Assembly (NCBI GenBank): GCA_015069485.1
Contig: SVIM01000004.1
Coordinates: 4,385 to 68,384 of the forward strand
Origin: Clostridiales bacterium
GTDB lineage: Bacteria > Bacillota > Clostridia > Christensenellales > Borkfalkiaceae
DNA length: 64,000 bases
Direction: 5' to 3'
A program made the position numbers and the translations under genes. Below, in pieces: positions 1 through 18,737 of the stretch (position 1 is the first letter of the stretch; every line of letters starts with the position of its first letter). A model generated the notes under the pieces. The model did no database searches. It saw only the letters and a list, made by a program, of their open reading frames with translations, and was not told the origin of the DNA.

Positions 1-3000
1 GTTTTTACGCTGTAAGGAAGAATTACCTTTTCGATTACGCCTTCTTCAAGGTTGCTAAACGACGCTGCCTTAACGGAAACGGTTTTTTCTAAAATGCTAT
101 AAACTCTTTGTCCGTCAACCGCTTCTGCTTGCTTTGCGCTGGGATATGCAACTAATTCGAAGGAATTATAATCGTATTCGTTTGCGCCGATTTTTATATA
201 CCTATATAATACACCATCTTCATCAAAATAGCAAGCGTTATCTTCAGAAACGGCAATTTTAATAAGGTTTTGTGATGCGCTAAACGCGCCGTAGCCAATT
301 TGCTTTACCGTTGCGGGAAGATTTACTTCCACTTCTTTGCCGTTTAAGAAGGCGTAGTCGCCGATTTCTTCAACCACGGGCATATTTATTGAGCTATAGC
401 CTTCGGTTGCGGAAATAGCAGAGTCGCTACCAAACGCCATTGCGCCTATTACCTTTGCGCTTTCAAGGTCGAGCTCTTCAATCGCAGTACAGTTATAGAA
501 CGCATATTCGCCGATGGAAATTAAGTTTTCGATACCGATTACGGTTTCGAGATTGTAACAGCCGTAGAAGGCGTTGTTGCCTACTGCCGTCGTATTTTTA
601 AGGTCGATTTCTCTAAGGTTTACACAGTTATAGAACGCGCGCGCGCCGATTTGTTCAACGCCTTCGCCCAAGGTTACGCTATTGAGTGACCTTAACGAAG
701 TGAAGGTGCTGCTTCCTATCGTAGTTGCGTTTTGACCAAAGGTTACGCTTCTTAAAGCGTTTGCGTTTCTGAAGGTGTTAGAGCCGAGAGTGTGAACGGA
801 AGGCATTTTTGCCGTTGTAAGAGCAATACAGCCGGAGAATACGCTGTTGCCCATTTCGGTTATTCCGTCGTATAAAGTTACCTCGGTAAGATTAGTACAA
901 CTTGCAAACGCGTTATTGCCTAACGAAGTACCCTTAAAGGTGTTTTCGGTAATCTTTGTAATAAGAGTGTTAGCAAACGCATAGTCGCCAATCTCTTTTA
1001 CGCTTGAAGGTAAGCTTACGCTAGATAATCTCGTGCCGTTAAAGGTGTACGCTTTAATTGCGGTAAGGCTTGAGCCTTGTTCAAAGGTTACGCTTGTTAA
1101 AGGCGTGCTTTGGAAGGCGTTTTCGCCTATTTCGTTTATTCTTGCAGGAATAGTTATAGTTGATATATTGCTACCTACAAAGGCGTAAGGCGCAATAGCC
1201 GTTACGGTTTGAGGGAAGCTGAATCCGGATTGAGGAACGGATAAAACCTTTAAAAGCTTGGTTGCGTCGCCGTTATAAATTGCGCCGTCTACTACCTTAT
1301 ACTTTGTAGAGCCTTCTGCAACGGAAACGGAAATTCTGCCGAATACGTTACCTACGCTTTCTAAAGAAGCGAGGTCAACGCTATCGTTTAATACGAGTTT
1401 AGATACGCCGGAGCCGTTTAAGATATTGCTACCGAGAATAGCCAAGCCTTGAGGGAAGGCAAACGAGGTTAAGCTTGCGGTGTTACCAAATGCTTCGTCG
1501 CCGATGCTTCTTACGCTTACTCCGTTAAAGTTAACGGTGCTTAAGCGAGCGCATCCGTAGAACGCACGGTAGCCGATATTGAACGCAACCTCTTCGCCTA
1601 CAGGGTTTTGGAAGTTAACGGTTGTAAGACGGGTACAGCCTTGGAACGCTCTTTCGCCGATATTAGGGGTTTTAAGCGTTATGGAGGTAAGTGAAGTACA
1701 GCCGTTGAACATACCCGTGCCGATTGCCGTAAACTTATCGGTGGTTACGCTTGAAAGCGAGGTACAACCGGAGAATACGCCCGTACCGCTCATATGAAGA
1801 CCGGAAAGGTCGATTGATTGAAGGGAAGTGCAACCGCCAAATGCATAGCTGTGCATAGTACCTATTTTTTGAGGGTCGAGTATGTTTTTAAGTGAAGTAC
1901 AGTTTGCAAACGCATAGTGAGCAACGGTGAAGATTTTACAGTTTCTAAAATCTATCGTTTCAAGTGAAGTACAGCCGTAGAACGCGTAAGGCTCAATCAT
2001 AGTAAGGTTTGCGTCGTCTACTTCCATTTCGTCTTCTTGAATAAATCTTACCGTTTTAAGCGCAGTACAGTTTTCAAACGCGCTTTCGTCGATATTAGTT
2101 ACCGTTTTAGGAATAATAACCTCGGTGATATAGTCGTTATCCTTAAAGGCATCCTCGCCGATAGTCATAATATTCATATCGTCGGGAATTACTACCACCT
2201 TATCTGCACCCGTATATTCGGTGAGAGTGAAATTAGAAACGGTAAATTCGTCCTGCACGTTTAATATTACGTTGGTTGAATAGCTTGTTAAGCCACCGTT
2301 AGCATCAAGAAGCTGAGCCTGAATAATTGCCATACCGTGCTTAACGCCGGTTACGTTACCGTTTTGGTCAACCTTTGCAACGGATTCGTCGGAGGAAGTC
2401 CATTTAATATTTAAGGTTTCAACGGGATAGTACCAAGGATCAGGTATAATTTTTAAGGTGAATTTTTGGTTAGCGTTTACGTTTACCGCACCTTCTGCCT
2501 TGCTTATTGATTCAAGCTCCGTTTCGATAGTGCCAAACGAAATAGAAGGCAAGGTAAGCTTTTTATTGCTTTCTACTACTTCTATTTCAATAGTCTTGTT
2601 TAAACCCTTACCGTTAGAAACCGTTACCCTTGCCTTGCCGGGCTTTAAGCCGACGATTTCGCCGTTTTTAACGTTAGCTACGGAGATGTTGTTAGAAGAC
2701 CAGTTAAAGTTAGAAATATTTGCGCTTCCTTCGTAATTTAAGGAAACCTTATGAGTTTCGTAAACGCCCAAGGTTATTTTATCTTCGCCTTCTGCAAGGT
2801 CGAATTCTTGAGGGGTTACGCTTGTATTTGCAGAGCCAGTAGTGCTTAAATCAAGCTGGAATACGCTGTGGTTTAAAGCGTAGTCGTCGATTTGCACGTA
2901 GAAGTTATAGCCTTCGTAGAAAAGGTCGGTTACTTCAACGGAAACGGTGGTCGTGCCGTTTTTATTTGCGTCTCTTATGGGGGTGATATAGTCCGTTGCA

Positions 3001-6000
3001 AGCTTAATGTAGTTTACGTCGTCAGAGCCCTTGTCGAGATAGCAAAGCATTAAGGATTGCGCGTAGTGATTATCGTACACGTCGAAATCGAGATATACGC
3101 GCTGTTTAATCTTGTTTCCGTCCTTATAATCGTAATATCTTACTCTTACGTCTTTAAGCACGGGTGCTTCGTAGTCAACGTAGAAGTCAAACGAGAAGGT
3201 GTTTTCTTCCCTATATTCCGATTCTTTGTCGAAGCGGAAGTCGAAGTTCATCGTATATTTACCGTTTGCAGCCAAGCCGTAATCGTCGGCAGTAAAGTCT
3301 AAATCGATAAATCCGGGACGAGCCTGACCGCCACCTGCGTACGCCTTACCTATACGGTATAGCGTATCTTTATTTATAATTTCGTTAGTGTCGGCGTTAA
3401 CTAAATCGTAATGAGCGTATCTTGCGTTTCTAAGCAAGCCTACGTAAACCGCCCTTATGCTTGCCGCCGTCATATAGTTATCAATATCGTCGGTGTATTC
3501 GTTATAGCAGGATATTGCTGCGTGATCCCTATCGGTATACATAGGATCTACGTCGTCGGGAAGAAGATATACGTAGTTGCCAAGGGGAATTACGTATTGG
3601 TTGTTATAGTAGCCTGCGTAAGCTTGGGTTGCCCAAACGCTTGCTTGAGGCTTTTCTTCTTCCTTTAAGGATGCGTCTTGCTCGAACGCCGCGATTTCGT
3701 AACAGTCGTAATCGAGCATAGGCGCTGACGACCAGTCGCCGTAGAAGCCCATAAAGGGAATAACTAAGTCGCATTGGCTGTCGTCTTGAGAGATAAGCTT
3801 ACAGAAGCCTTCTACGAACATACCGTTAATAAAGCTTTCGTCGATATATTGCTTTTCTTTATTAGAAAGCTCTACGGTTACGGTTACTTCTACTTGCTCG
3901 CCTGCGGCTACGGTGATGGCGGAAACCTCTGCCCCACCTACAGTCCAAACTGCGGGGATATCGTCAAGCATATAAGCTTGTTCTGCTACTGCAAGCTTGT
4001 CGCTTGCAAGCGTTTCGGTCATAAATAAGGTATTCGTTTTAAAGCTTAAAGACTTAGTACCCATATTATGAACCTTGAACGAGAAGGTGTATTTACCTTC
4101 CTTTTCTTTGTCGTCGCCAAGCTCAACCTTAGGTCTGTTATCAATAGCAATATCGGTGGAGATATATGCGTTTGAAGAAACTACGTTATGAAGGCTGCCT
4201 AAGCCTGCGCCCTGCTTACGGGGGGAATAGGGAAGGCCGTTTTCGTTATATACCGTCGTTGCAGTACTCATCATAAGCTGATTTGCAAGACGGGTAATTT
4301 CTTGGTTGGTGTATTCGGGGAATCTATCGTCAATGTAATCCCTTACGAGAGCCATAACGCCCGCCATATTAGGCGACGCCATTGAAGTACCGCTTTGCTC
4401 GTCGTATCCACCGGGAACGGTTGAGGTGATTTCGCCACCGTGCGCGGTTATTTCGGGTTTAATTTCAAGGTTAGGAGTTGCGCCCCAGGATGAGAAATCA
4501 CTCATAAAGGGTCCTGCGAGAAGGCTTGTATCAACTTTGATTTTACCTACTCTGTTCGTTGCGCCAGCTACCATTGCGTTGCCCGCATCCATAGTGATGG
4601 AAACTGCGGGGATAGGGTCGTCCACTTCGCCGAGGTTCATACGGATAGAGCCTGCAACGTTGTTGTAAACGATTATTGCAGATGCGCCCATTGCCATAGC
4701 TACTTCAACCTTTTCTTGGAAGGTTGTATTACCACGCTTAACGAGAGCTATTCTGCCGTTAACTAAATTTCTTACGGTAGAAGTATAGTCGGCTGCTTGT
4801 CCGATACCGGGAACTACTACGTATTCGAATTCGGCAGTAGTTTGTCCTTCTTCAAGCATCTCTTCCGCAAAGTCGTAGGGAACGGAGTTTTCGTCGCTCG
4901 CTTCGTTATAGAAGACTGCAGTTTCGTTGTTTGTGCCAGGATTAGCGAGCATATACTTTGCTTGCTGACCGCTTATGGAAGCAACCGAGAGAGCTGAAGT
5001 ATAGGTTGAAGGAGAGCCTACCGTACCGGAGTCGGGGTTAGATGCAAGGTTAGTACCGAATACGCCGCCGTAGCCGGAGCTATAGTCGTTACTTGCCGCA
5101 ACTATAAGGCTTATGCCTGCGTCCTGCACGGCTGTATATACTCTGTGTAAAGCCGTACCTTCTTCGTCGCCGTCGTCGGTGGTTGAGAAGCCTGCGGAAG
5201 TACCTAACGACATATTAATTACGTCAACGTTTAAAAGCACGCAGTCTTCTACCGCAGCCATAATATCTTCCGCCCTTGCACCGCCGATATCCGCGTCGTA
5301 CAAGTCGTCGGTAAAGGTTTTCATAATAACTAACTGCGCTTCGGGAGCAACGCCGATAAAGGGAATTTCTTCTCCGTTTTCGTCCACTTCAGTTTCGCCG
5401 TCCTTGTTGGTATAGCTATCTGCTTGACCTGCTACTATACCCGCAACGTGCGTACCGTGGTTGGAATAGGAAGGATATACGTCGGCGTCGTTATCAGCGT
5501 AGTCGTACGCGTAAGGAACTTTATTAGAAACGAATACGTCGTCTACGGTTAAGGAATCGCCACGAAGGGAAGTTCTAGTTTCTGCAACGAGGTCCTTTTG
5601 CTTTAAAATTTCCCTTACGTCGCTTTCCTTCATACCTAAAGCTTCTGAATTAGTGGGTTGAGTTTGGAAGGCTTCGTGAGTATAGTCTAATCCGGTATCG
5701 ATAACCGCTACTACCATGCCTTCGCCTTCGTATTCGCCTGCAAATTCTGAAGAATCGTAAATACCCGTTTTATAAACGCTGGTTTTGTTTACTACTGCAG
5801 AATCAACTACGCTACCGCCGTTGCCGTAAGCGGCGTACGCCGTTGCCGTGGTTTGGTTAACCGATTGAGGCGCTGCGTAAGTTCTGGAAATTTCTACACC
5901 CTTAACGCCCGATATACCTTTAATCGTTGAAACGTAAGAGGTGTTTATTTTAAGAGCGACTGCATTGATTACGGTGTTGTAGGTATCGACTATTTCGTAG

Positions 6001-6386
6001 TCGATTTTGTTGTCGTCAAGCGTTCCTAAAAAATCGCTTTGAGTTTTTTGGATAGCCTTTAACGCATTTTTACCCGTTTGAGTTGATAAAAATTCGGATG
6101 CAGTTTGGTCGTCCGCCTTTCTCTCGATAATAGAATCAGAATCTAAAGTAACGATAACTACCTTATTTTCGTAAGAAGTTTTTTCTGATTTTAATACCGA
6201 AGAATTTAAGTTTGCATTGCGGATATGGGATAAATCTACCTGCCCCGTTACGTTTTTAAACGAAGCTCCGCTTGCGTTATTTTCTAAACCTCCGCTTGCA
6301 AAGCCGAGTTGGCTTAAACCGAGCGAAAGAGACATAATGCAAGTTAAGCTTAAACAGGCAATACCCTTAATTCTTTTTTTATTCAT
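1..6386 (-). CDS. Secreted S8 (subtilisin/lactocepin-like) serine peptidase with Big_2-like Ig domain and C-terminal BspA-type leucine-rich repeats; 3'-partial (continues beyond window start)
   Basis: Not in the supplied ORF track, which lists no minus-strand ORF in 1-6509. I hand-translated the minus strand from ATG 6386 down to about 4,050 and from about 2,900 down to about 650 without meeting a stop, and I infer one frame open to position 1 (2,128 codons). GGAGGT lies 4 nt upstream of the ATG. Signal peptide MNKKRIKGIACLSLTC. Catalytic motifs: VAVIDTGLDYTHEAF (~5,697), NHGTHVAGIVAG (~5,450), GTSMASPNMAG (~4,380). Big_2-like SSDESVAKVDQNGNVTGVKHG (~2,350). From ~2,200 to 1 there are repeated units of the type IGxYAFxxCTSL (e.g. 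IGEYAFYNCTAIEELDL), typical of BspA-type LRRs. Confidence 0.85.
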   Translation of the reverse strand, partial: MNKKRIKGIACLSLTCIMSLSLGLSQLGFASGGLENNASGASFKNVTGQVDLSHIRNANLNSSVLKSEKTSYENKVVIVTLDSDSIIERKADDQTASEFLSTQTGKNALKAIQKTQSDFLGTLDDNKIDYEIVDTYNTVINAVALKINTSYVSTIKGISGVKGVEISRTYAAPQSVNQTTATAYAAYGNGGSVVDSAVVNKTSVYKTGIYDSSEFAGEYEGEGMVVAVIDTGLDYTHEAFQTQPTNSEALGMKESDVREILKQKDLVAETRTSLRGDSLTVDDVFVSNKVPYAYDYADNDADVYPSYSNHGTHVAGIVAGQADSYTNKDGETEVDENGEEIPFIGVAPEAQLVIMKTFTDDLYDADIGGARAEDIMAAVEDCVLLNVDVINMSLGTSAGFSTTDDGDEEGTALHRVYTAVQDAGISLIVAASNDYSSGYGGVFGTNLASNPDSGTVGSPSTYTSALSVASISGQQAKYMLANPGTNNETAVFYNEASDENSVPYDFAEEMLEEGQTTAEFEYVVVPGIGQAADYTSTVRNLVNGRIALVKRGNTTFQEKVEVAMAMGASAIIVYNNVAGSIRMNLGEVDDPIPAVSITMDAGNAMVAGATNRVGKIKVDTSLLAGPFMSDFSSWGATPNLEIKPEITAHGGEITSTVPGGYDEQSGTSMASPNMAGVMALVRDYIDDRFPEYTNQEITRLANQLMMSTATTVYNENGLPYSPRKQGAGLGSLHNVVSSNAYISTDIAIDNRPKVELGDDKEKEGKYTFSFKVHNMGTKSLSFKTNTLFMTETLASDKLAVAEQAYMLDDIPAVWTVGGAEVSAITVAAGEQVEVTVTVELSNKEKQYIDESFINGMFVEGFCKLISQDDSQCDLVIPFMGFYGDWSSAPMLDYDCYEIAAFEQDASLKEEEKPQASVWATQAYAGYYNNQYVIPLGNYVYLLPDDVDPMYTDRDHAAISCYNEYTDDIDNYMTAASIRAVYVGLLRNARYAHYDLVNADTNEIINKDTLYRIGKAYAGGGQARPGFIDLDFTADDYGLAANGKYTMNFDFRFDKESEYREENTFSFDFYVDYEAPVLKDVRVRYYDYKDGNKIKQRVYLDFDVYDNHYAQSLMLCYLDKGSDDVNYIKLATDYITPIRDANKNGTTTVSVEVTDLFYEGYNFYVQIDDYALNHSVFQLDLSTTGSANTSVTPQEFDLAEGEDKITLGVYETHKVSLNYEGSANISNFNWSSNNISVANVKNGEIVGLKPGKARVTVSNGKGLNKTIEIEVVESNKKLTLPSISFGTIETELESISKAEGAVNVNANQKFTLKIIPDPWYYPVETLNIKWTSSDESVAKVDQNGNVTGVKHGMAIIQAQLLDANGGLTSYSTNVILNVQDEFTVSNFTLTEYTGADKVVVIPDDMNIMTIGEDAFKDNDYITEVIIPKTVTNIDESAFENCTALKTVRFIQEDEMEVDDANLTMIEPYAFYGCTSLETIDFRNCKIFTVAHYAFANCTSLKNILDPQKIGTMHSYAFGGCTSLQSIDLSGLHMSGTGVFSGCTSLSSVTTDKFTAIGTGMFNGCTSLTSITLKTPNIGERAFQGCTRLTTVNFQNPVGEEVAFNIGYRAFYGCARLSTVNFNGVSVRSIGDEAFGNTASLTSFAFPQGLAILGSNILNGSGVSKLVLNDSVDLASLESVGNVFGRISVSVAEGSTKYKVVDGAIYNGDATKLLKVLSVPQSGFSFPQTVTAIAPYAFVGSNISTITIPARINEIGENAFQSTPLTSVTFEQGSSLTAIKAYTFNGTRLSSVSLPSSVKEIGDYAFANTLITKITENTFKGTSLGNNAFASCTNLTEVTLYDGITEMGNSVFSGCIALTTAKMPSVHTLGSNTFRNANALRSVTFGQNATTIGSSTFTSLRSLNSVTLGEGVEQIGARAFYNCVNLREIDLKNTTAVGNNAFYGCYNLETVIGIENLISIGEYAFYNCTAIEELDLESAKVIGAMAFGSDSAISATEGYSSINMPVVEEIGDYAFLNGKEVEVNLPATVKQIGYGAFSASQNLIKIAVSEDNACYFDEDGVLYRYIKIGANEYDYNSFELVAYPSAKQAEAVDGQRVYSILEKTVSVKAASFSNLEEGVIEKVILPYSVK

Positions 6387-11452: not shown

Positions 11453-12334
11453 ATGACTGACAAAAAAGCGCGAAGCCTGCGCTTAATATACGGAATTTGC
11501 CTTTCGGTGCTAACCGTTATCGTCGCGTTGCTGTTTATTATTCAATCGCAGACTATATTTTGGCAAGGCGGTGGGATAGCCGGCTCTTACACCCGTGATA
11601 TTGTAGGGGAAAAGCTTTTGCAAATTTTAGCGCCCGTATTACTTTGGCTTGTTGCAGTTGTTGCAGGCGCAATTATTTGGAAGATTTATCCTGAAAAGCA
11701 AAGCAAGCTTTGCTCGTCGTTTAGCGAAAGGGAAAAGCTTGAAAGGATTAAAGGCAAGCTTCCGCAAAAGCTTGACGAGGACTGTTATTTAAAGGATATA
11801 ACGGCGTTAAACAACAAGGAGCTTTACCGTAAAGTAGTTTGGGGTGCGGTTTTTGCCGTATGCTTGTTCGCCACTATTATGTGCGCGATATACCTACTTA
11901 ACCCTGCAAATTATTCAAAGGCGGGCTCGGCGGAATTTAACCCTACGGCGGATACGATTAAAATGCTCCCCCACACTCTTCCCTACCTTTTCGCAGCCTT
12001 CGCTTGCCTTATAGGCGCAACTATTTACGAAGAAATTAACGCTAAAAAGCAATCTGAATTAGTTAAGGGCCTTATTAAAGCCGGAGCGAAAAACGGATTA
12101 AAGCTTAGCGCAGAAAAACAAAATACTACCCCCTGCAAATATAAGTTTATCGAAAATTTAATTAGCGTATGCAAAAAACACCAAAAGACTTTGTTGCTTG
12201 CCGTAAGATGCGCAATTTTGGTAGCAGGTATAACGCTTATAGTTTTAGATATTACGCTTTTAGGCGGAAAAGGAATTAGCGACGTTTTGCTTAAAGCCAT
12301 TAACATTTGTACGGAATGTATAGGTTTGGGGTGA
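11453..12334 (+). CDS. Polytopic membrane protein (about 5 TM) with a C-terminal CxxC tail (..AINICTECIGLG)
   Basis: AAGGAG lies 6 nt upstream of the ATG. Hydrophobic segments sit at about aa 11-31, 57-77, 127-148, 176-193 and 246-268. The protein ends in CTEC. Its stop is 4 nt before the next ATG, which implies coupling with 12339-14051. Confidence 0.75.
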   Translation: MTDKKARSLRLIYGICLSVLTVIVALLFIIQSQTIFWQGGGIAGSYTRDIVGEKLLQILAPVLLWLVAVVAGAIIWKIYPEKQSKLCSSFSEREKLERIKGKLPQKLDEDCYLKDITALNNKELYRKVVWGAVFAVCLFATIMCAIYLLNPANYSKAGSAEFNPTADTIKMLPHTLPYLFAAFACLIGATIYEEINAKKQSELVKGLIKAGAKNGLKLSAEKQNTTPCKYKFIENLISVCKKHQKTLLLAVRCAILVAGITLIVLDITLLGGKGISDVLLKAINICTECIGLG

Positions 12335-12338
12335 TAGT

Positions 12339-14051
12339 ATGAAATTTTTTAGTAAAGTAAAACAATGGTTTATTGATCATAAGCCCACGAAGAGAAGATT
12401 AATTCAAATTTATTCAGCGTTGCTTTACAACGCAAATATTAAAGGGTTTTTTACAGGACAAATTTCTAAAAGCAACTCTAAATTGGCGTGCGTGCCCGGC
12501 TTTAATTGCTATAGCTGTCCCGGTGCGATAGGCGCTTGCCCATTAGGCTCGTTACAAAACGCCTTGGCGGCCTCCGGAACTACTGCGCCAATGTACGTAA
12601 TAGGCATAATTTTGCTGTTTGGATTGTTGCTTGGACGCACTATATGCGGCTTCCTTTGCCCCGTTGGACTACTTCAAGAGTTAGCTTATAAAATTAAAAC
12701 GCCCAAGGTTAAAAAGGGTAAGGTTACAAGAGTACTTTCCTACCTTAAATACGTTTTGCTTATAGGCTTGGTAATTTGCATACCCGTAATGTATCAGGCG
12801 GGCGTACCTGCATTTTGTAAATACATATGCCCCGTAGGTACTTTGGAAGGCGGTATTGGAATTTTGGCAAACCCGAATAACGAAAACATGCTTTCTATGC
12901 TAGGCCCGTTATTCACTTGGAAGTTTTTAGTTTTAGTAGCGATTATCGTTGCCTGCATTTTTATTTACAGATTCTTTTGTAGATTCCTTTGCCCCCTTGG
13001 CGCAATTTACGGATTCTTTAACAAAATTTCTATTTTAGGCGTAAAGCTTGATAAAAATAAGTGTACCGATTGCGGACTTTGCGTTGCGCATTGTAAAATG
13101 GACATTAACCACGTTGGCGACCACGAATGTATTAGCTGTGGCGACTGCATTAAAATTTGCCCGGCAAACGCTATTTCGTGGAAGGGTTCTAAATTGTTTA
13201 TTCACCCTAACGCAATCGATACGACGCCCGTAAAGGAAGAAAAGGTTAACCTTTTAGCAATGGCTTCAAAGGTAACCGAAGAAACGGTTTTAGAAGAAGG
13301 CGCAACGGCACAAAGCGAAAATACGGTTGGTGCTGACAGCGCAAATATTAGCGAAAACACCGGCATATATGCCCAAACGAGCGAAATTTCGCAAGGTGAT
13401 TTTGCAAATGACAAAACGGTTAGCGACGATGGCGAAAAGCCCACCCTTACCCCCGAGCAAAAAATTAAAAAAAGAAATTTTTGGTTGGAATTTAGCGCTT
13501 GGGCAGTAGCCCTTGTAATTCTTGCAGGCGCTCTCGTTTATTATAATTTTATATTAAAGGACGAAGCGCCCGTAACTAACCTTGTGGGACAGGAGTGCCC
13601 CGAATTTACCGTAGAGCTTTTAGATGATTTTAGCGAGTACTCTCCTTCCGATTCAAGAGGAAAAATTACCATTTTAAACTTCTGGTACACGGACTGCGCG
13701 CCTTGCGTTGCAGAATTGCCCCACTTTGAAGAATTGTACGAGGATTTTGGTGAAGATATTTATATAGTTGCTCTTCATAGCTACGGCTTTAGCCAAATCG
13801 AGCAAGGCAGCACGCTTGTTGAAGATTATATTTACGACTGTGGTTGGGATAGCTGGAATATAAACTTTGCCATTGACGTTCCCCAACAGACTGAAGACGG
13901 ACAAAAAGAAATTTACGATTTGATGGGCGGAAGCAACGGCTCTTACCCTATGACCGTAATAGTTGACCAAGAAGGCGTAATTGTTTTCCATAAAATAGGT
14001 AGCGTAACCTACGACGAATTAGAAAAACAAATTAACGACCTTTTACAGTAA
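12339..14051 (+). CDS. NapH/MauN-like membrane polyferredoxin (CxxCP/CxxxCP motifs plus 2x[4Fe-4S] ferredoxin domain) fused by a linker and one extra TM to a TlpA/ResA-type thioredoxin-fold domain
   Basis: Motifs seen: CYSCPGAIGACPLG, CGFLCPVG, CKYICPVG, CRFLCPLG, then CTDCGLCVAHC...CISCGDCIKICP. A low-complexity linker of about 110 aa follows. Then comes the TM segment FWLEFSAWAVALVILAGALVYYNF. The last domain is thioredoxin-like, with ILNFWYTDCAPCVAELPHF (CxxC = CAPC). Confidence 0.85.
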   Translation: MKFFSKVKQWFIDHKPTKRRLIQIYSALLYNANIKGFFTGQISKSNSKLACVPGFNCYSCPGAIGACPLGSLQNALAASGTTAPMYVIGIILLFGLLLGRTICGFLCPVGLLQELAYKIKTPKVKKGKVTRVLSYLKYVLLIGLVICIPVMYQAGVPAFCKYICPVGTLEGGIGILANPNNENMLSMLGPLFTWKFLVLVAIIVACIFIYRFFCRFLCPLGAIYGFFNKISILGVKLDKNKCTDCGLCVAHCKMDINHVGDHECISCGDCIKICPANAISWKGSKLFIHPNAIDTTPVKEEKVNLLAMASKVTEETVLEEGATAQSENTVGADSANISENTGIYAQTSEISQGDFANDKTVSDDGEKPTLTPEQKIKKRNFWLEFSAWAVALVILAGALVYYNFILKDEAPVTNLVGQECPEFTVELLDDFSEYSPSDSRGKITILNFWYTDCAPCVAELPHFEELYEDFGEDIYIVALHSYGFSQIEQGSTLVEDYIYDCGWDSWNINFAIDVPQQTEDGQKEIYDLMGGSNGSYPMTVIVDQEGVIVFHKIGSVTYDELEKQINDLLQ

Positions 14052-14233: not shown

Positions 14234-14265
14234 AAAAAACGCTAACAAACCGTTAGCGTTTTTTA
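14232..14265 (-). terminator. Bidirectional-type terminator downstream of the lipoprotein gene 14285-14935
   Basis: AACGCTAAC (14238-14246) pairs with GTTAGCGTT (14252-14260). It is flanked by an A-run and a T-run. Confidence 0.65.
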
Positions 14266-14284: not shown

Positions 14285-14935
14285 TTATTCTTCGATAGCC
14301 TGAACCGTTACGGTTATTTCAGTTTTAGTTGCCGAAACGGCTACGTCGGAGGAAACGATTTCGTAATCTCTGCTAGACGCCGCGTTTAAGATTACAACGT
14401 AATCGTTAGGTACTGCGGAAATAGTAGCCTTTCCGTCGTCGCCCGTTCTTACGCCGTCGGTTTTATTGCTTTCGTTTGCAGCTTCTTGAAGTCTTACGCC
14501 AACGTTAGAAACTACCGCGCCGTCACCGTCAACCACGGTTATAACGTAATCGATAAGGTTTTTAACTACGATAGAATATTCGGAATCTTCTTTCGTAGTA
14601 GTAACCGCTGCCGTTGTTTCGAGCTGTTTTAAATCTTCGGTGAGAATATGAATTTCGTATTCAGCGGGATTAACGTGCAACACTAAAACGCCGTTTGCAT
14701 CGGTTTTTGCTTCTGACTGAAGGCAAGTATCGCCCAAGCAGTATTGAATATAATGATCCTTAACTGCGTTTCCGTCTTCGTCCTTTACGGTAAATTTATA
14801 AGATGCGGTAGTAGGGTCGCTATCTGCCCAATCTGCACCGCCGTCCGTATTTCCGCAAGCTACGAATAAAGACGCCGTGCAAGCCGTTAATACGGAAAGG
14901 CAACCAATAATTATTTTTTTAAATAAATTTTTCAT
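14285..14935 (-). CDS. Lipoprotein built from two prealbumin/carboxypeptidase-regulatory-like Ig-fold modules
   Basis: Signal peptide and lipobox: MKNLFKKIIIGCLSVLTACTASLFVAC|GN. The modules YKFTVKDEDGNAVKDHYIQ...EYEIHIL and YVITVVDGDGAVVSNVGVRL...DYVVIL are the same type as in the adjacent 15022-18522 protein. Confidence 0.75.
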   Translation of the reverse strand: MKNLFKKIIIGCLSVLTACTASLFVACGNTDGGADWADSDPTTASYKFTVKDEDGNAVKDHYIQYCLGDTCLQSEAKTDANGVLVLHVNPAEYEIHILTEDLKQLETTAAVTTTKEDSEYSIVVKNLIDYVITVVDGDGAVVSNVGVRLQEAANESNKTDGVRTGDDGKATISAVPNDYVVILNAASSRDYEIVSSDVAVSATKTEITVTVQAIEE

Positions 14936-15021
14936 AAATACTCCTTTTATCTTTCTTTCTAAAGGTTTATCGTTATACGGTTAGCTTACCCCACGGATTG
15001 CGGGGTAAGCGTATATACGGT

Positions 15022-18000
15022 TTATACTACGGCGTAGCTACAAGCAAGAAGCCAGCTGTTAGGCGACAAAATAGATTCGTCGGTGGGATGTGTGAAGATG
15101 CTGCGTGAGAAGAAGAGCATAATTTCGTAAAGCTGTTCGTCCACCGCAACGAAGCCTTCAAGGTTACCCTCGTTAGCTTCTGCTTCGGCAAGATATTCTT
15201 CCATTACGGAAGTCCAGTCTTCGCCGTAAACACCGCCTATTTGAACGTCTTCAAAGTTGAAGGTATGATATACTCCGTCGTCAACGGTAGTACGTCCGGT
15301 AATAAAGTCTGCAAGAACCTCGCCGTTAGAGAACATATAGGTTGTGCCAGTTAAGTTAAGGTAAATTAATCCGCCTTGACTGCCGTTATAAAGCTTATGG
15401 TGGTAATATCCGTCGTCACCGAGCATAAAGTCGATACAGTTTGCAGCATACCACTCGCCCGTTTCATCATCAAATACGTGAGGGCCTTCACCTGCAGCAA
15501 TTAACTCGCCTGAGCTTTCGTTACCGTAATGTGTTACCCTTACGTTAAAGTCGCCGGTTGCAGGATGAGCGTACATAGTTATAAGGAGATATACCTTTTC
15601 GCCTTGCTTAAGGTTAACTTCAAATCTAAAGTCTTCCATATAGCCTTCGGGGCCGAAGTAGCTGCTTGAGCCGTTAGTGCCTTGCATTACGTAGGATTTA
15701 AATCCGAACTCATCCACTACCTCGCGCATAATCCAAGCTTGAGATTGAGCGTTATCGGTGGACTTGAATTCGTAGAAGCCTGCTTCTTCTGCGGTAAATA
15801 CGTGGTAAATACCTCTAGGTACGGGCGTTTTGTTAATTACTACGTGGTTATCACCTTCGTGAAGCTCAATTGCGGTGTGAGTTGCAAGACCCTTAATGGG
15901 GTTTTCCATTTCTCCGCCCGCAGGTCCGTAATAATCGTAATAAACGCACATTTCAAGCCAAACTTCGTTTGCTTCGCCGGTAAATTCATTATACGTACCC
16001 TTTTGGTCGCCAAGGTTTGCAGCAATTAATTTTAACACGTCTGCCATTTCTTCGTTTACGGGAACGTAGCCTTCTATATCAGACCAAGCGGCAAGGTGCG
16101 CAAACGAGTTCGTTCCTGCTATAATTTCTTTATAGTCAACGCCGTTAAATACGCAATAGCCGTCGTCTGCAAGATTAAATATCGTGGTGTTGGGATTCCA
16201 CTGCGTGCCGTACTGAGTAATTACCGCCATAAGAAGAGGGCCGTTTTCGTTATAAACGTGATAGAAGCCGTCTTCTGCGTTAAACACTACGTCAACGTAG
16301 TGCTCGTATTTCATTTCGCTATTAGTTGCAGTATAATTTTCGTTAGCACCGAATGCTGCGTAACGGAAAATGCTTGTGGGAACATTGATTGCATCTTCGG
16401 TTAAAATACGCATATTGCTGATTTCAACCTTTTCGCCTTCATACGCCGTCGTGCGGTCTTTATTATAGCACAACGATAAAGTATATTCTCCGTCAACGGG
16501 TACAACGTAAGCGAAGCAAGTTCCACTTATCGTACCACTTAAACTTTGCATAATTTGATTATCGATTAATACGTATAATACGTCGTAACCGAATTCAGTA
16601 GAAATATTGTAATCGAAAGTAATTACGTCACCGGCTTTAGCAGTAAAATCAGAATGAATATTTGCGAAAGTAAAGTTTAATAATTTATCGCTTTGTCTTA
16701 CGTTACTTGCATGGATACCGTTTCCGTTTGCATTGGGAAGCCAAGGCCAAGCATATTCAAAGTCAGAAGAATCTTCAGACTCGAAATAGTAAGTAAAGTT
16801 ACAATTTTGACCGTTAAGCGCCTGAGCTACAGATTCAACGCTGGGATTGTCAATATCGGGCTTTATTCTTTCGCCAGAGTTATCGGGAAGAGGTTCCCCA
16901 CCGCCGCCAGAGCCACCGATTTGTTGAACGTAGTCGTCTGCAATATAACGGTCGAAAATTCTTGCCCATTCGCCTTGAACTACGATAGAGCCCGTGTGCG
17001 CTTCGGTTATAACGCCGTATCTATCGACAAATACGGTTGTGGGAATACCACCTGACGAGAAGCGTGAAAGCATTGAGTAAATGCCGTTATCTTCTGCAAA
17101 AGGCATACCGTTTAAGCCTTCGTCGGAGCTGAAGTCGTAGCATGCGTCTAACGAGTCGGAAGTAGAAACCGCAATAACTTCTACGACGTCGCTATACTGT
17201 AAATACGCGCCGTAAAGGGCGGGGAATTCACTTCTACAAGGACCGCACCAGGTTGCCCAAAGGTTGATTACTACAAGCTTCTTTTCTTCTAAAATTTCAG
17301 AAAGAGTTAATTCTCCTTCCGTAGTTTCGATAACGAGCTCGTACATAACGTCGCCGAGAGAGTAGGTAAAGTTTTTATCGGGGGTTTGATCCTTAATTAC
17401 TTCCGTGGTAAGGGTTGCGTAGCCTTGGCTGTTGCCTGCGGTGAGCTCAACGAAATCCGAGCCCTGCATTGCGTAGCCTAAATCAAGGTCTTCTACTGCT
17501 ACGTTATAAGTTGCAGCGGGAAGATAAACTATTGCAACGCCGTCGGAATTAGTGTTAGCGTGGCTTACGAAAGTATCTTCTAAATAGAAAGCAACCTTAA
17601 CGCCTTCCATTAAACGACCGCCGATATTATCTACGGTTAAGGAATATTCAATAGCTTCCGTGCCTTCGGGCGCAACGTTGATGGTTACGTCTTCGCCAAC
17701 TATTTTTAAGGTTTTGGAGTTTGCGCCTAAAACGGAGTAGCCTTGTAAGCTGCTTACTACCCTTAATTCGTATGCATAAGCGGGAAGGGTGAATTCTATT
17801 CTACCGTCACCGTCGGTGGTTAAGGTATCTACCACTTCTCCTCTTTTTAATACTTCTATTTCAGCGCCTTCTACAACCTCGCCTAAATGCGTTCTTACGG
17901 TTGCGCTATAGGTTACGTCTTGAACGTTAAGATTGATGGTAACGCTAGACTTTTCTTGGCTTACGGTGTAGTAGCCGTTGCTACCTTCTTCCGTATTAGC

Positions 18001-18522
18001 CACGAAAACGTAGGGAGCAGGAAGATCTAACGCAACAATATATTCGGCGTGAGCAACCTTTATGATTGCGCCGTTTTTCGTTGTAATACCAGAAGCGACC
18101 GTTTCGCCGGATGCGGTTTGAAGATATACTTCGATACCCGCAACGTGTTCGCCTTCGTGAAGCACGTTAATTCTGTAACCGTCGTCTTTAAGCGTAACGT
18201 TTACTTCAGAGCCTTGTTTATCAGTTGAGTAAGAGCCGTTTACAGCCATGCCTTGGGGCAAATTGGAAAGCTTAACCTCGTAAACGTCGGGGCTTGCCTG
18301 CATAACCGCTTTACCGTCACTACCGGTAACGCCACTCGCTTGCGCTTCTCCGTCGAGAACGAGTTCTACCGTAACTTCGCTAACCGCAGAGCCGTTGCTA
18401 TCTACGACGCTAACGGTGTAGCTAATAGGTTCGGGTTTTGCGCAACCGGAAAGCATAGCAAACCCTAAGCAAAGGGACAATACTAATGCAAAAGTTGCGA
18501 TAAGTCCGAGCACTTTTTTCAT
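15022..18522 (-). CDS. 1,166-aa surface lipoprotein: at least 4 Ig-like (carboxypeptidase-regulatory-like) modules, an embedded TlpA-type thioredoxin domain (WCGPC), and a C-terminal region of about 620 aa of unknown function
   Basis: The track ORF extends to 18621. I prefer ATG 18522 (MKKVLGLIATFALVLSLCLGFAMLSGC|AKP, a lipobox) with AGGAGG upstream. Repeated modules include YTVSVVDSNGSAVSEVTVEL and YRINVLHEGEHVAGIEVYL. Thioredoxin motif: LVVINLWATWCGPCRSEFPALYGAY. A Gly-rich linker GGSGGGGEP follows. The C-terminal part is jelly-roll/PPC-like, and I cannot assign it. Confidence 0.85.
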   Translation of the reverse strand: MKKVLGLIATFALVLSLCLGFAMLSGCAKPEPISYTVSVVDSNGSAVSEVTVELVLDGEAQASGVTGSDGKAVMQASPDVYEVKLSNLPQGMAVNGSYSTDKQGSEVNVTLKDDGYRINVLHEGEHVAGIEVYLQTASGETVASGITTKNGAIIKVAHAEYIVALDLPAPYVFVANTEEGSNGYYTVSQEKSSVTINLNVQDVTYSATVRTHLGEVVEGAEIEVLKRGEVVDTLTTDGDGRIEFTLPAYAYELRVVSSLQGYSVLGANSKTLKIVGEDVTINVAPEGTEAIEYSLTVDNIGGRLMEGVKVAFYLEDTFVSHANTNSDGVAIVYLPAATYNVAVEDLDLGYAMQGSDFVELTAGNSQGYATLTTEVIKDQTPDKNFTYSLGDVMYELVIETTEGELTLSEILEEKKLVVINLWATWCGPCRSEFPALYGAYLQYSDVVEVIAVSTSDSLDACYDFSSDEGLNGMPFAEDNGIYSMLSRFSSGGIPTTVFVDRYGVITEAHTGSIVVQGEWARIFDRYIADDYVQQIGGSGGGGEPLPDNSGERIKPDIDNPSVESVAQALNGQNCNFTYYFESEDSSDFEYAWPWLPNANGNGIHASNVRQSDKLLNFTFANIHSDFTAKAGDVITFDYNISTEFGYDVLYVLIDNQIMQSLSGTISGTCFAYVVPVDGEYTLSLCYNKDRTTAYEGEKVEISNMRILTEDAINVPTSIFRYAAFGANENYTATNSEMKYEHYVDVVFNAEDGFYHVYNENGPLLMAVITQYGTQWNPNTTIFNLADDGYCVFNGVDYKEIIAGTNSFAHLAAWSDIEGYVPVNEEMADVLKLIAANLGDQKGTYNEFTGEANEVWLEMCVYYDYYGPAGGEMENPIKGLATHTAIELHEGDNHVVINKTPVPRGIYHVFTAEEAGFYEFKSTDNAQSQAWIMREVVDEFGFKSYVMQGTNGSSSYFGPEGYMEDFRFEVNLKQGEKVYLLITMYAHPATGDFNVRVTHYGNESSGELIAAGEGPHVFDDETGEWYAANCIDFMLGDDGYYHHKLYNGSQGGLIYLNLTGTTYMFSNGEVLADFITGRTTVDDGVYHTFNFEDVQIGGVYGEDWTSVMEEYLAEAEANEGNLEGFVAVDEQLYEIMLFFSRSIFTHPTDESILSPNSWLLACSYAVV

Positions 18523-18737
18523 ATAATTCCTCCTATTTATTAAACTGAAATTCTTCCAATTCAAGCTTATAACTATTTTACAAGCATTTAATATTTTAAC
18601 AAATATTTGTGTGTTTTGCAACCATAATTATGCCTTAAATTAATATTTATTATATAATGTGGTACAAAAAGACATTAATTTTACCCAAATATGCATAAAT
18701 TTACAATTATACACAAAATTATGCATAAGTTTTTAAT

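Follow-up and report, generated by a model that had tools for sequence, protein, structure and literature searches.

Until now, the thioredoxins known from outside the cytoplasm have been small maturation factors that lie near the membrane and receive electrons from CcdA or DsbD. In the group formed by ResA of Bacillus subtilis, TlpA, CcmG and StoA, proteins of 140-220 amino acids (aa) stay near the membrane, depend on CcdA/DsbD for their reduction and take part in the maturation of cytochrome c, of CuA/Sco and of the spore cortex. Here, we describe a larger relative from a Clostridiales bacterium of the Borkfalkiaceae (assembly GCA_015069485.1), encoded in a stretch of 64,000 nucleotides that we call the window (contig SVIM01000004.1, positions 4,385 to 68,384), in which positions 14,285 to 18,522 hold the genes of two surface lipoproteins. 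The larger lipoprotein shares with the ResA group the thioredoxin fold, the CxxCxxExP motif with its buried glutamate, the cis-proline loop and an extracytoplasmic anchor, but it is 1,166 aa long, carries a stalk of four modules and a 600-aa tail of tandem modules, and belongs to a genome with neither CcdA/DsbD nor cytochrome c genes. We tentatively propose, at somewhat less than an even chance, that it is a stalked, lipid-anchored disulfide reductase, fed by an iron-sulfur (Fe-S) protein, that opens disulfides in extracellular proteins for digestion by an S8 protease and uptake through an Opp-type transporter.

The stalked thioredoxin lipoprotein

The lipoprotein genes and the N-terminal features of the larger protein are as follows.

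15022-18522, minus strand: gene of the 1,166-aa surface lipoprotein, stop codon counted (open reading frame list, translation, ribosome-binding site, 115 homologous clusters)
18442-18522, minus strand: lipoprotein signal peptide, aa 1-27, with lipobox LSGC (Cys27), seen in the translation
17389-18435, minus strand: stalk of four immunoglobulin (Ig)-like modules of the Big_1/CarboxypepD_reg/SdrD_B type, aa 30-378 (Pfam, module alignments)
16933-17370, minus strand: thioredoxin domain of the ResA/TlpA class, aa 385-530 (Pfam, NCBIfam, PDB profile and phmmer, Foldseek)
17236-17250, minus strand: WCGPC active site with Cys426 and Cys429; the other key residues are Glu432 and cis-Pro494
14285-14935, minus strand: 216-aa lipoprotein of two Ig-like modules (translation, Pfam)

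The large gene lies within an enclosing open reading frame at 15022-18621 (minus strand), in which the ATG at 18522, with AGGAGG 6 nt before it, is the likely start. A lipobox or an N-terminal transmembrane helix comparable to LSGC was present in most family members, and the 1,166-aa protein is predicted to sit outside the cytoplasmic membrane on its N-terminal anchor.

Pfam matches to Redoxin (PF08534, 36.6 bits), AhpC-TSA (PF00578, 43.3 bits) and Thioredoxin fell at aa 400-512, the first two each over its cut-off, and Cys426 and Cys429 are held by NLWATWCGPCRSEFPAL. ResA was the closest relative of this domain both by sequence (phmmer E 1e-13; PDB profile E 1e-27) and by fold (Foldseek template-modelling (TM) score 0.82-0.85 on the target), followed by TlpA, StoA and pneumococcal Etrx2. 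In the alignment, NLWATWCGPCRSEFP fell on NFWGTWCEPCKKEFP of ResA (C-G-P-C-R-S-E-F-P against C-E-P-C-K-K-E-F-P), Glu432 was aligned with Glu80, the residue mutated in the ResA E80Q structure (2h1b), and IPTT with the ResA cis-Pro loop LPTT. CxxCxxExP was found in 111 of 111 relatives, Cys426 and Cys429 being invariant in the family. The Gly-Pro dipeptide that separates them is that of classical thioredoxin. Scores against NCBIfam equivalog models were far under their cut-offs (ResA 59.9 against 170, TlpA 48 against 230, StoA 31 against 210, DsbE 39.5 against 123). On sequence grounds, the domain belongs to the ResA/TlpA class and is orthologous to no named enzyme. The GGSGGGG linker that follows it was disordered in the AlphaFold2 model, with a predicted local distance difference test score (pLDDT) of about 41.

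Within aa 30-380, ahead of the thioredoxin domain, Pfam gave Big_1, CarboxypepD_reg and SdrD_B matches. When this region was split into four pieces of ~87 aa that were aligned pairwise, four of the six pairs scored z 6-8 (M2-M4 4.6, M2-M3 1.4), and comparison with the modules of the 216-aa lipoprotein gave z up to 12.5. Most family members, at ~940 aa, have one Ig module; with four, the window protein is a long-stalk variant of its family.

We evaluated the distribution of the family by pattern and tblastn scans of one genome per GTDB species, which gave relatives in at least 391 species genomes. The best 80 of these 391 were all Clostridia metagenome-assembled genomes (MAGs), nearly all of gut or faecal origin, and included Candidatus Scatosoma, Oscillospiraceae, Faecousia, Acutalibacteraceae, Ruminococcus, Roseburia, Agathobacter and Christensenellaceae; the closest was 34% identical. 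Literature searches found no paper on this redoxin-jelly-roll/DGYYH family or on 'CD1871A', the type of a neighbouring membrane protein described below.

Tandem modules of the C-terminal tail

Beyond the linker, aa 560-1166 comprise two modules, each with a jelly-roll and a ~125-aa domain with the motif DGYYH...GP.L...G..PVT.EL...L...WL..C.YY, detected with a hidden Markov model (HMM).

15913-16845, minus strand: module A, aa 560-870, jelly-roll and DGYYH copy 1 (AlphaFold2, hhalign, domain HMM, alignment)
15910-16314, minus strand: DGYYH copy 1, aa 737-871, with His755, Cys859 and Tyr861 invariant
15025-15912, minus strand: module B, aa 871-1166, second jelly-roll and DGYYH copy 2 (hhalign against module A, domain HMM)
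15025-15450, minus strand: DGYYH copy 2, aa 1025-1166, with Cys1161 in 97% of relatives

A search with aa 560-1166 as the query yielded 115 protein clusters at 26-37% identity (E from 1e-81 to 1e-20). Almost without exception, their proteins were ~940 aa long and combined the tail with a redoxin domain, a single Ig-like module and a lipobox or transmembrane helix. As nearly all of the 115 pair it with a redoxin domain, the association of the tail with the thioredoxin domain is a conserved one. Few of the clusters had source names; these read 'redoxin domain-containing protein' or 'TlpA family protein disulfide reductase' and came from MAGs of Clostridia, Clostridiales and Roseburia. Neither Pfam nor NCBIfam matched aa 560-1166 at E<=0.1, no Pfam family fell on the tail in the Pfam lists of homologous clusters or in scans of atypical DGYYH proteins, and when PDB sequences were searched with profiles of the family and of the DGYYH domain and with the tail by itself, every significant hit lay in the thioredoxin domain. 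Compared profile against profile (hhalign), the two halves of the tail matched each other with a probability of 99% (E 2e-18, 251 columns); judged from this match, the tail arose by tandem duplication of a ~300-aa module, in which a jelly-roll precedes the DGYYH domain.

AlphaFold2 models were built from 62-64 homologues, one with the thioredoxin domain and one of aa 560-1166 alone, with pLDDT 84 and a predicted TM score (pTM) of 0.65 with the thioredoxin domain and 0.76 for the tail alone. Each module was modelled as a beta-sandwich with a small strand-plus-helix domain behind it. Foldseek with the thioredoxin-containing model matched almost only ResA/TlpA chains, with little on the tail. The tail alone gave only weak matches, to tandem jelly-roll, carbohydrate-binding module (CBM) and CUB sandwiches in the PDB, namely those of EngBF, reelin, the Cry1 C-terminal domains and BcsB, and further the CUB domains of cubilin and MASP, the collagen-binding domain of ColG, and VesC, and from BFVD came only generic sandwiches of the CUB and CBM types and of tail-fibre or receptor-binding proteins. 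No enzyme fold for the tail was among the Foldseek matches in either database. Going by these modelled folds, the two modules may be the target-binding part of the protein.

The DGYYH HMM detected both copies in the window protein (E 8e-32 for copy 1 and about 5e-16, 4.5e-16, for copy 2). We compared 84 related loci through their stop-to-stop open reading frames and jackhmmer searches with the window proteins, and the HMM found 96 further reading frames in 75 of the 84, mostly of ~420 aa and directly after the family gene, together with larger ones. In proteins with a single DGYYH domain (354-1,450 aa), it lay near the C-terminus, and the ~420-aa type had no Pfam match; examples are L036:3310-4569, L004:12940-14196 and L076:11912-13210 (locus and positions). 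Run against 1.84 billion representative sequences, the DGYYH profile matched 1,820 clusters at E<=1e-3, of which 1,289 remained at E<=1e-10. The only Pfam partners of the domain in 17 atypical proteins were Redoxin/AhpC-TSA/Thioredoxin, Ig-like families (Big_1, CarboxypepD_reg, MG4, Invasin_D3), LRR_5, a collagen repeat and a dockerin. In these comparisons, DGYYH behaves as a new mobile domain. Individual arrangements included a 636-aa protein with DGYYH and a type I dockerin (P0132), a 1,288-aa protein with DGYYH, BspA-type LRR_5, collagen repeat and redoxin (P0217), and proteins of 1,674-1,816 aa in which the redoxin domain stood ahead of the Ig modules (P0123 and P0129).

Invariant or nearly invariant residues of the tail included Trp592, Asp647, Lys688, Tyr742, Tyr754, His755, Trp855, Cys859, Tyr861 and Cys1161, with Cys859 present in 100% of relatives. 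Potential partner cysteines stood at the columns of aa 820 and 1124 in 68% and 82% of relatives, and a cysteine pair of the first jelly-roll in 81% and 69%. The window protein has Val820 and Phe1124 where most relatives have the partner cysteine; with both partners lost, a structural disulfide cannot explain why Cys859 and Cys1161 are conserved there. DGYYH might itself be a new cysteine-dependent redox or catalytic domain, centred on Tyr754, His755, Cys859 and Tyr861, which are invariant in copy 1 across the family, and on the nearly invariant Trp855. The fused thioredoxin would recycle it, by analogy with thioredoxin recycling methionine sulfoxide reductases (Msr) or peroxiredoxins; we consider this reading distinctly unlikely. 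If DGYYH were catalytic, the protein would form an extracellular enzyme of a new type, complete in itself, with an Fe-S protein rather than CcdA/DsbD driving it across the membrane, and the single-module paralogues would be more enzymes served by the same thioredoxin.

Much of what a sequence-only reading of the window had said of these proteins was borne out. The Ig-like modules (four), the WCGPC thioredoxin and the glycine linker that it had described in the 1,166-aa lipoprotein were recovered by Pfam, translation and alignments, and Pfam and the module alignments likewise agreed that the 216-aa protein consists of two modules of the same type. Two subregions that had been guessed to be beta-sandwiches appeared at the guessed places in the AlphaFold2 model, and the fold search of the tail returned no known enzyme. 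The tail had also been called an orphan region, which holds insofar as it has no relative in Pfam, NCBIfam or the PDB, but it is conserved in more than 100 clusters and in the species genomes counted above, and it is internally duplicated. The stalked architecture, which had been taken as unusual, proved less singular than thought, since it belongs to a family in which most members have one Ig module.

The convergent operon and the wider neighbourhood

Four features around the lipoprotein genes enter the comparison.

12339-14051, plus strand: 4Fe-4S membrane protein, NapH-like, with a fused outward TlpA domain that has CAPC...E.P (Pfam Fer4_5, Redoxin)
11453-12334, plus strand: membrane protein with a C-terminal CxxC tail, CD1871A-type (weak NCBIfam NF040920 match)
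14234-14264, unstranded: hairpin with a 13-bp stem and A and T runs on its flanks, between the convergent operons (terminator scan)
1-6386, minus strand: giant S8 protease, 2,440 aa, running off the window start (completed from the same contig; relatives in loci L001, L002 and L004)

The lipoprotein genes converge on the operon at 11453-14051 (plus strand), with ~230 bp from stop codon to stop codon, and the hairpin at 14234-14264 is likely a bidirectional terminator common to both operons. The 216-aa lipoprotein gene has its own ribosome-binding site and lipobox, and the two lipoprotein genes are predicted to form one co-transcribed unit. The 86-nt spacer that separates them contains a 9-bp GC-rich hairpin, GCTTACCCC-N9-GGGGTAAGC in the minus-strand transcript, at 14984-15010; it has no T-run and might affect RNA stability or act as a partial terminator, and in this way set the ratio between the products. 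A separate feature of the smaller lipoprotein is a CX4C hairpin in its first Ig-like module (IQYCLGDTCLQ; Cys66, Cys71; 14723-14740). The pattern Q[FYL]C....C..P..TD..G also occurred in Ig-domain reading frames (142-889 aa) downstream of the family gene in ~12 of the 84 related loci, and the CX4C motif was conserved in those loci that have it. We considered and rejected a DsbD-alpha-like relay role for the small Ig lipoprotein, since Q[FYL]C....C was present in only ~13 of 85 loci and the role would hence not be general.

In 80 of the 84 loci, an Ig-domain reading frame lay downstream of the family gene, on its strand and at most 4.3 kb away; in about half it was immediately adjacent. Linkage to more distant genes was counted in the 45 loci with about 9-10 kb on each side (the full-flank set). 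There, the NapH-like and CxxC-tailed proteins were encoded within 10 kb in 26 of 45 loci and always together (26 of 26). Among 34 NapH-like neighbours, 24 were fused to TlpA, nine were succeeded by a separate TlpA gene of ~200 aa and one was cut by the locus end. The giant S8 protease lay within 10 kb in 24 of the 45, and the ~450-aa lipoprotein encoded after it was present in 22 of the 45; 33 loci had NapH or S8, and 17 had both. In 11 loci with a GLUG-type protein, as in the window, the gene order was that of the window. The S8 relatives in L001, L002 and L004 (2,400-2,483 aa) had the order Peptidase_S8-PA-fn3_5-Big_2-LRR_5, and the protease of the window has 24 cysteines past its signal peptide, many of them regularly spaced where the relatives have LRR_5. 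Genes of an Opp system (SBP_bac_5, two permeases, two ATPases) were found in L002, L003 and L004, and homology searches placed an Opp-type binding-protein homologue in nine of the 84 loci. On the window's own contig, positions 1-4384 before the window start encode a 448-aa lipoprotein after the S8 gene and next to it a large lipoprotein whose gene the contig end truncates; this second lipoprotein appears from its sequence and place to correspond to the SBP_bac_5 (Opp-type) binding protein of L002 and L004.

The assembly has 46 contigs that total 1.52 Mb; its completeness is rated at 97% and its contamination at 0.01%. No match to DsbD_TM/CcdA (PF02683) was found in this 97%-complete genome, while the control with PF02683 was positive in 10 of 14 reference genomes and the controls of the other genome searches also came out as expected. 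Cytochrom_C_asm (PF01578), MsrA and MsrB (PMSR, SelR) were likewise without a match in the genome. The genome has exactly two redoxin domains, that of the lipoprotein and that of the NapH fusion in the same locus, and the NapH-like protein is its only Fer4_5 protein. Of two other genomes of the genus, G222 carries both the lipoprotein and the fused NapH form, G274 neither of them. Between G222 and the window, the lipoprotein tail (15025-16845) was 30% identical and the NapH-like protein (12339-13238) 70%, a divergence that fits a fast-evolving exposed protein. An even class-wide sample gave the family in four of 301 genomes (~1%), too few for a genome-level co-occurrence statistic; one of them, G145, has the lipoprotein and NapH on one contig ~6 kb apart, and G222 and G145, both family-positive, carry the closest, fused NapH forms. 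Strong NapH-like orthologues were found in ~57 of 300 sampled genomes (~19%), mostly as unfused proteins of ~300 aa.

The sequence-only reading had placed the lipoprotein gene convergent to a polyferredoxin-thioredoxin operon, which is the layout found here, and had joined the two into a membrane donor and a distal surface reductase. The two thioredoxin-bearing genes do co-occur in other genomes, and the pairing of donor and reductase is well supported by comparison because of the linkage to NapH (26 of 45), the lack of CcdA/DsbD in the genome and the presence of only two redoxin domains. Its further suggestion, action on extracellular macromolecules, keeps the standing of a suggestion; it draws on the binding-type folds and on the linkage to S8 protease and Opp genes.

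Proposed function and comparison with known systems

In the arrangement we propose, the four Ig-like modules would hold the WCGPC thioredoxin domain off the membrane, and the two tail modules beyond the flexible glycine linker would capture the target. Reducing power would come from the convergent operon rather than from CcdA/DsbD: cytoplasmic electrons would pass to the 4Fe-4S clusters and cysteine motifs of the NapH-like protein, acting with its CxxC-tailed partner, from there to its own fused, outward TlpA domain, and on to the CGPC of the lipoprotein. Transfer from one thioredoxin-like domain to another has a precedent in TlpA and ScoI (PDB 4txo). The reduced CGPC domain would then open disulfides in proteins outside the cell, for which there is a precedent in Acinetobacter: A. 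baumannii TrxA is reported to act on host secretory IgA outside the cell (PMC6050963). The substrates would most likely be disulfide-rich host or dietary proteins and peptides, and once opened they could be digested by the adjacent giant S8 surface protease and imported through the Opp-type transporter. It is from these comparisons that we infer the direction of electron flow, the hand-over from TlpA to the thioredoxin domain, the binding role and the identity of the substrates.

Several points weigh against this proposal. Since conditions in the gut lumen are reducing anyway, there is less call for a dedicated reductase. Both the redox potential of the thioredoxin domain and its direction are read from motifs, and the CxxC dipeptide varies among relatives (GP 43, SW 40, TW 8, TY 8, few others), one of which has PH (CPHC), as in DsbA. 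The best PDB matches of the tail alone (E 6e-7 to 1e-3) reached TM of at most 0.2 on the query. About 40% of the full-flank loci had no NapH system inside 10 kb, and the fragmented, family-positive G055 showed the lipoprotein but no NapH system. Single-module DGYYH paralogues, so frequent beside the family gene elsewhere, were found neither in the window locus nor in the whole genome. The NapH system occurs in ~19% of the sampled Clostridia genomes and the lipoprotein family in ~1%, so that the NapH system has other clients, and the lipoprotein is just one of its clients or outputs rather than a defining part.

The same surface location would suit an enzyme of maintenance, one that keeps the cell's own cysteine-bearing surface proteins (the S8 protease, DGYYH proteins, its own tail) reduced and active after exposure to oxygen or oxidants, with the C-terminal modules docking onto these partners. 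The 24 cysteines of the protease and the nearly invariant DGYYH cysteines (Cys859 100%, Cys1161 97%) would give it substrates, and the DGYYH paralogues beside the family gene in 75 of 84 loci are consistent with a multi-protein surface assembly, but the window genome lacks such a paralogue, the S8 linkage holds in only 24 of the 45 full-flank loci, and two large binding-type modules seem too much for mere docking. Extracellular repair is generally rare among strict anaerobes, and Msr genes are absent from the genome; altogether we regard maintenance as unlikely, though an explanation to be taken seriously. Very unlikely, in our view, is a role in sulfur nutrition, in which cystine, glutathione disulfide or disulfide-bridged peptides would be reduced at the surface for Opp-type or other uptake. 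Small molecules would need neither a long stalk nor ~600 aa of binding-type modules, and the locus has no cystine- or glutathione-specific feature. In favour are the linkage to Opp and SBP_bac_5 genes, itself confined to a minority of loci (nine of 84 with a binding-protein homologue), CGPC as typical of general disulfide reductases, and the small genome of 1.52 Mb, which may suggest reliance on imported nutrients.

The thioredoxin domain might instead make or shuffle disulfides in the co-encoded DGYYH proteins, many of them with cysteine pairs, with NapH as an electron sink or as the reductant of an isomerase. A second cysteine does accompany the invariant one in most relatives (68% and 82%), the jelly-roll pair is common (81% and 69%) and one member has the DsbA-like CPHC. 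Yet the invariant glutamate of CxxCxxExP is a signature of the reducing ResA/CcmG/TlpA group, and the window protein has lost both partner cysteines (Val820, Phe1124) with its thioredoxin domain still intact. The host lineage consists of strict anaerobes, and no partner of the DsbB/VKOR type turned up in the loci, where no search was aimed at them; we hold an oxidase or isomerase to be highly improbable. An ordinary housekeeping protein of the ResA/CcmG/StoA/Etrx type with extra domains, for cytochrome c, spore cortex or methionine sulfoxide repair, is scarcely conceivable: ResA, TlpA, StoA and Etrx2 are indeed the best sequence and fold matches, but the 97%-complete genome has no CcdA/DsbD, Cytochrom_C_asm, MsrA or MsrB, the NCBIfam scores are far under the equivalog cut-offs, and neither the conserved 600-aa tail nor the synteny has a counterpart in those systems. 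A stalked reductase of extracellular proteins is the reading that we prefer.

Among described systems, Etrx1 and Etrx2 of Streptococcus pneumoniae (PMC3914529; PDB 4hqz, 2yp6) are likewise surface lipoproteins with a TlpA-like thioredoxin domain (Foldseek TM about 0.79 to that of the window protein), and their genes, like the window gene, adjoin a membrane electron-donor gene, in the window a candidate donor. At ~185 aa, the Etrx proteins take electrons from CcdA1/2 and reduce surface MsrAB2, whereas the window genome has neither CcdA nor Msr, and its neighbouring donor candidate is an Fe-S (NapH-like) protein instead of CcdA. DipZ of Mycobacterium tuberculosis (PDB 5cyy, 2hyx) also has a thioredoxin-like domain followed by a CBM-like jelly-roll (Foldseek E 1e-8 over 342 columns), although the superposition is poor (root-mean-square deviation 17.8 A). 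It is a fusion to a DsbD/CcdA-type transmembrane domain with one sandwich, while the window protein has no DsbD domain and two sandwiches, each followed by DGYYH. The NapH/NosR-type Fer4_5 system occurs in a three-gene form (CxxC-tailed, NapH-like and TlpA proteins), of which the window has a fused version and related loci have fused or split ones; most of the sampled genomes that carry the NapH system lack the lipoprotein family of the window. In the lactococcal PrtP-Opp system, too, the genes of an SBP_bac_5/Opp transporter accompany that of a large S8 protease of the cell surface that has PA and fn3_5 domains; the protease here is ~2,400 aa and its relatives have a BspA-type LRR tail, unlike lactococcal PrtP. 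The lactococcal system is not known to include a disulfide reductase or an Fe-S membrane protein.

From the small, CcdA/DsbD-fed thioredoxins described at the outset, the family, which is spread over hundreds of uncultured species of gut Clostridia, departs by its stalk, by two copies of an undescribed module and by a genetic tie to an Fe-S membrane protein in genomes without CcdA/DsbD. If our proposal is correct, Gram-positive anaerobes may have a second, iron-sulfur-based route for exporting reducing power, and the disulfide-rich proteins of the gut (mucins, IgA, digestive enzymes, defensins) could be harvested by a 'reduce then digest' strategy. The DGYYH domain, for which there are ~1,800 representative clusters and neither a Pfam entry nor a solved structure, merits definition as a family. 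What is new here, compared with the known systems, is an accessory architecture and a probable non-CcdA donor on an extracytoplasmic reductase of the known TlpA class.

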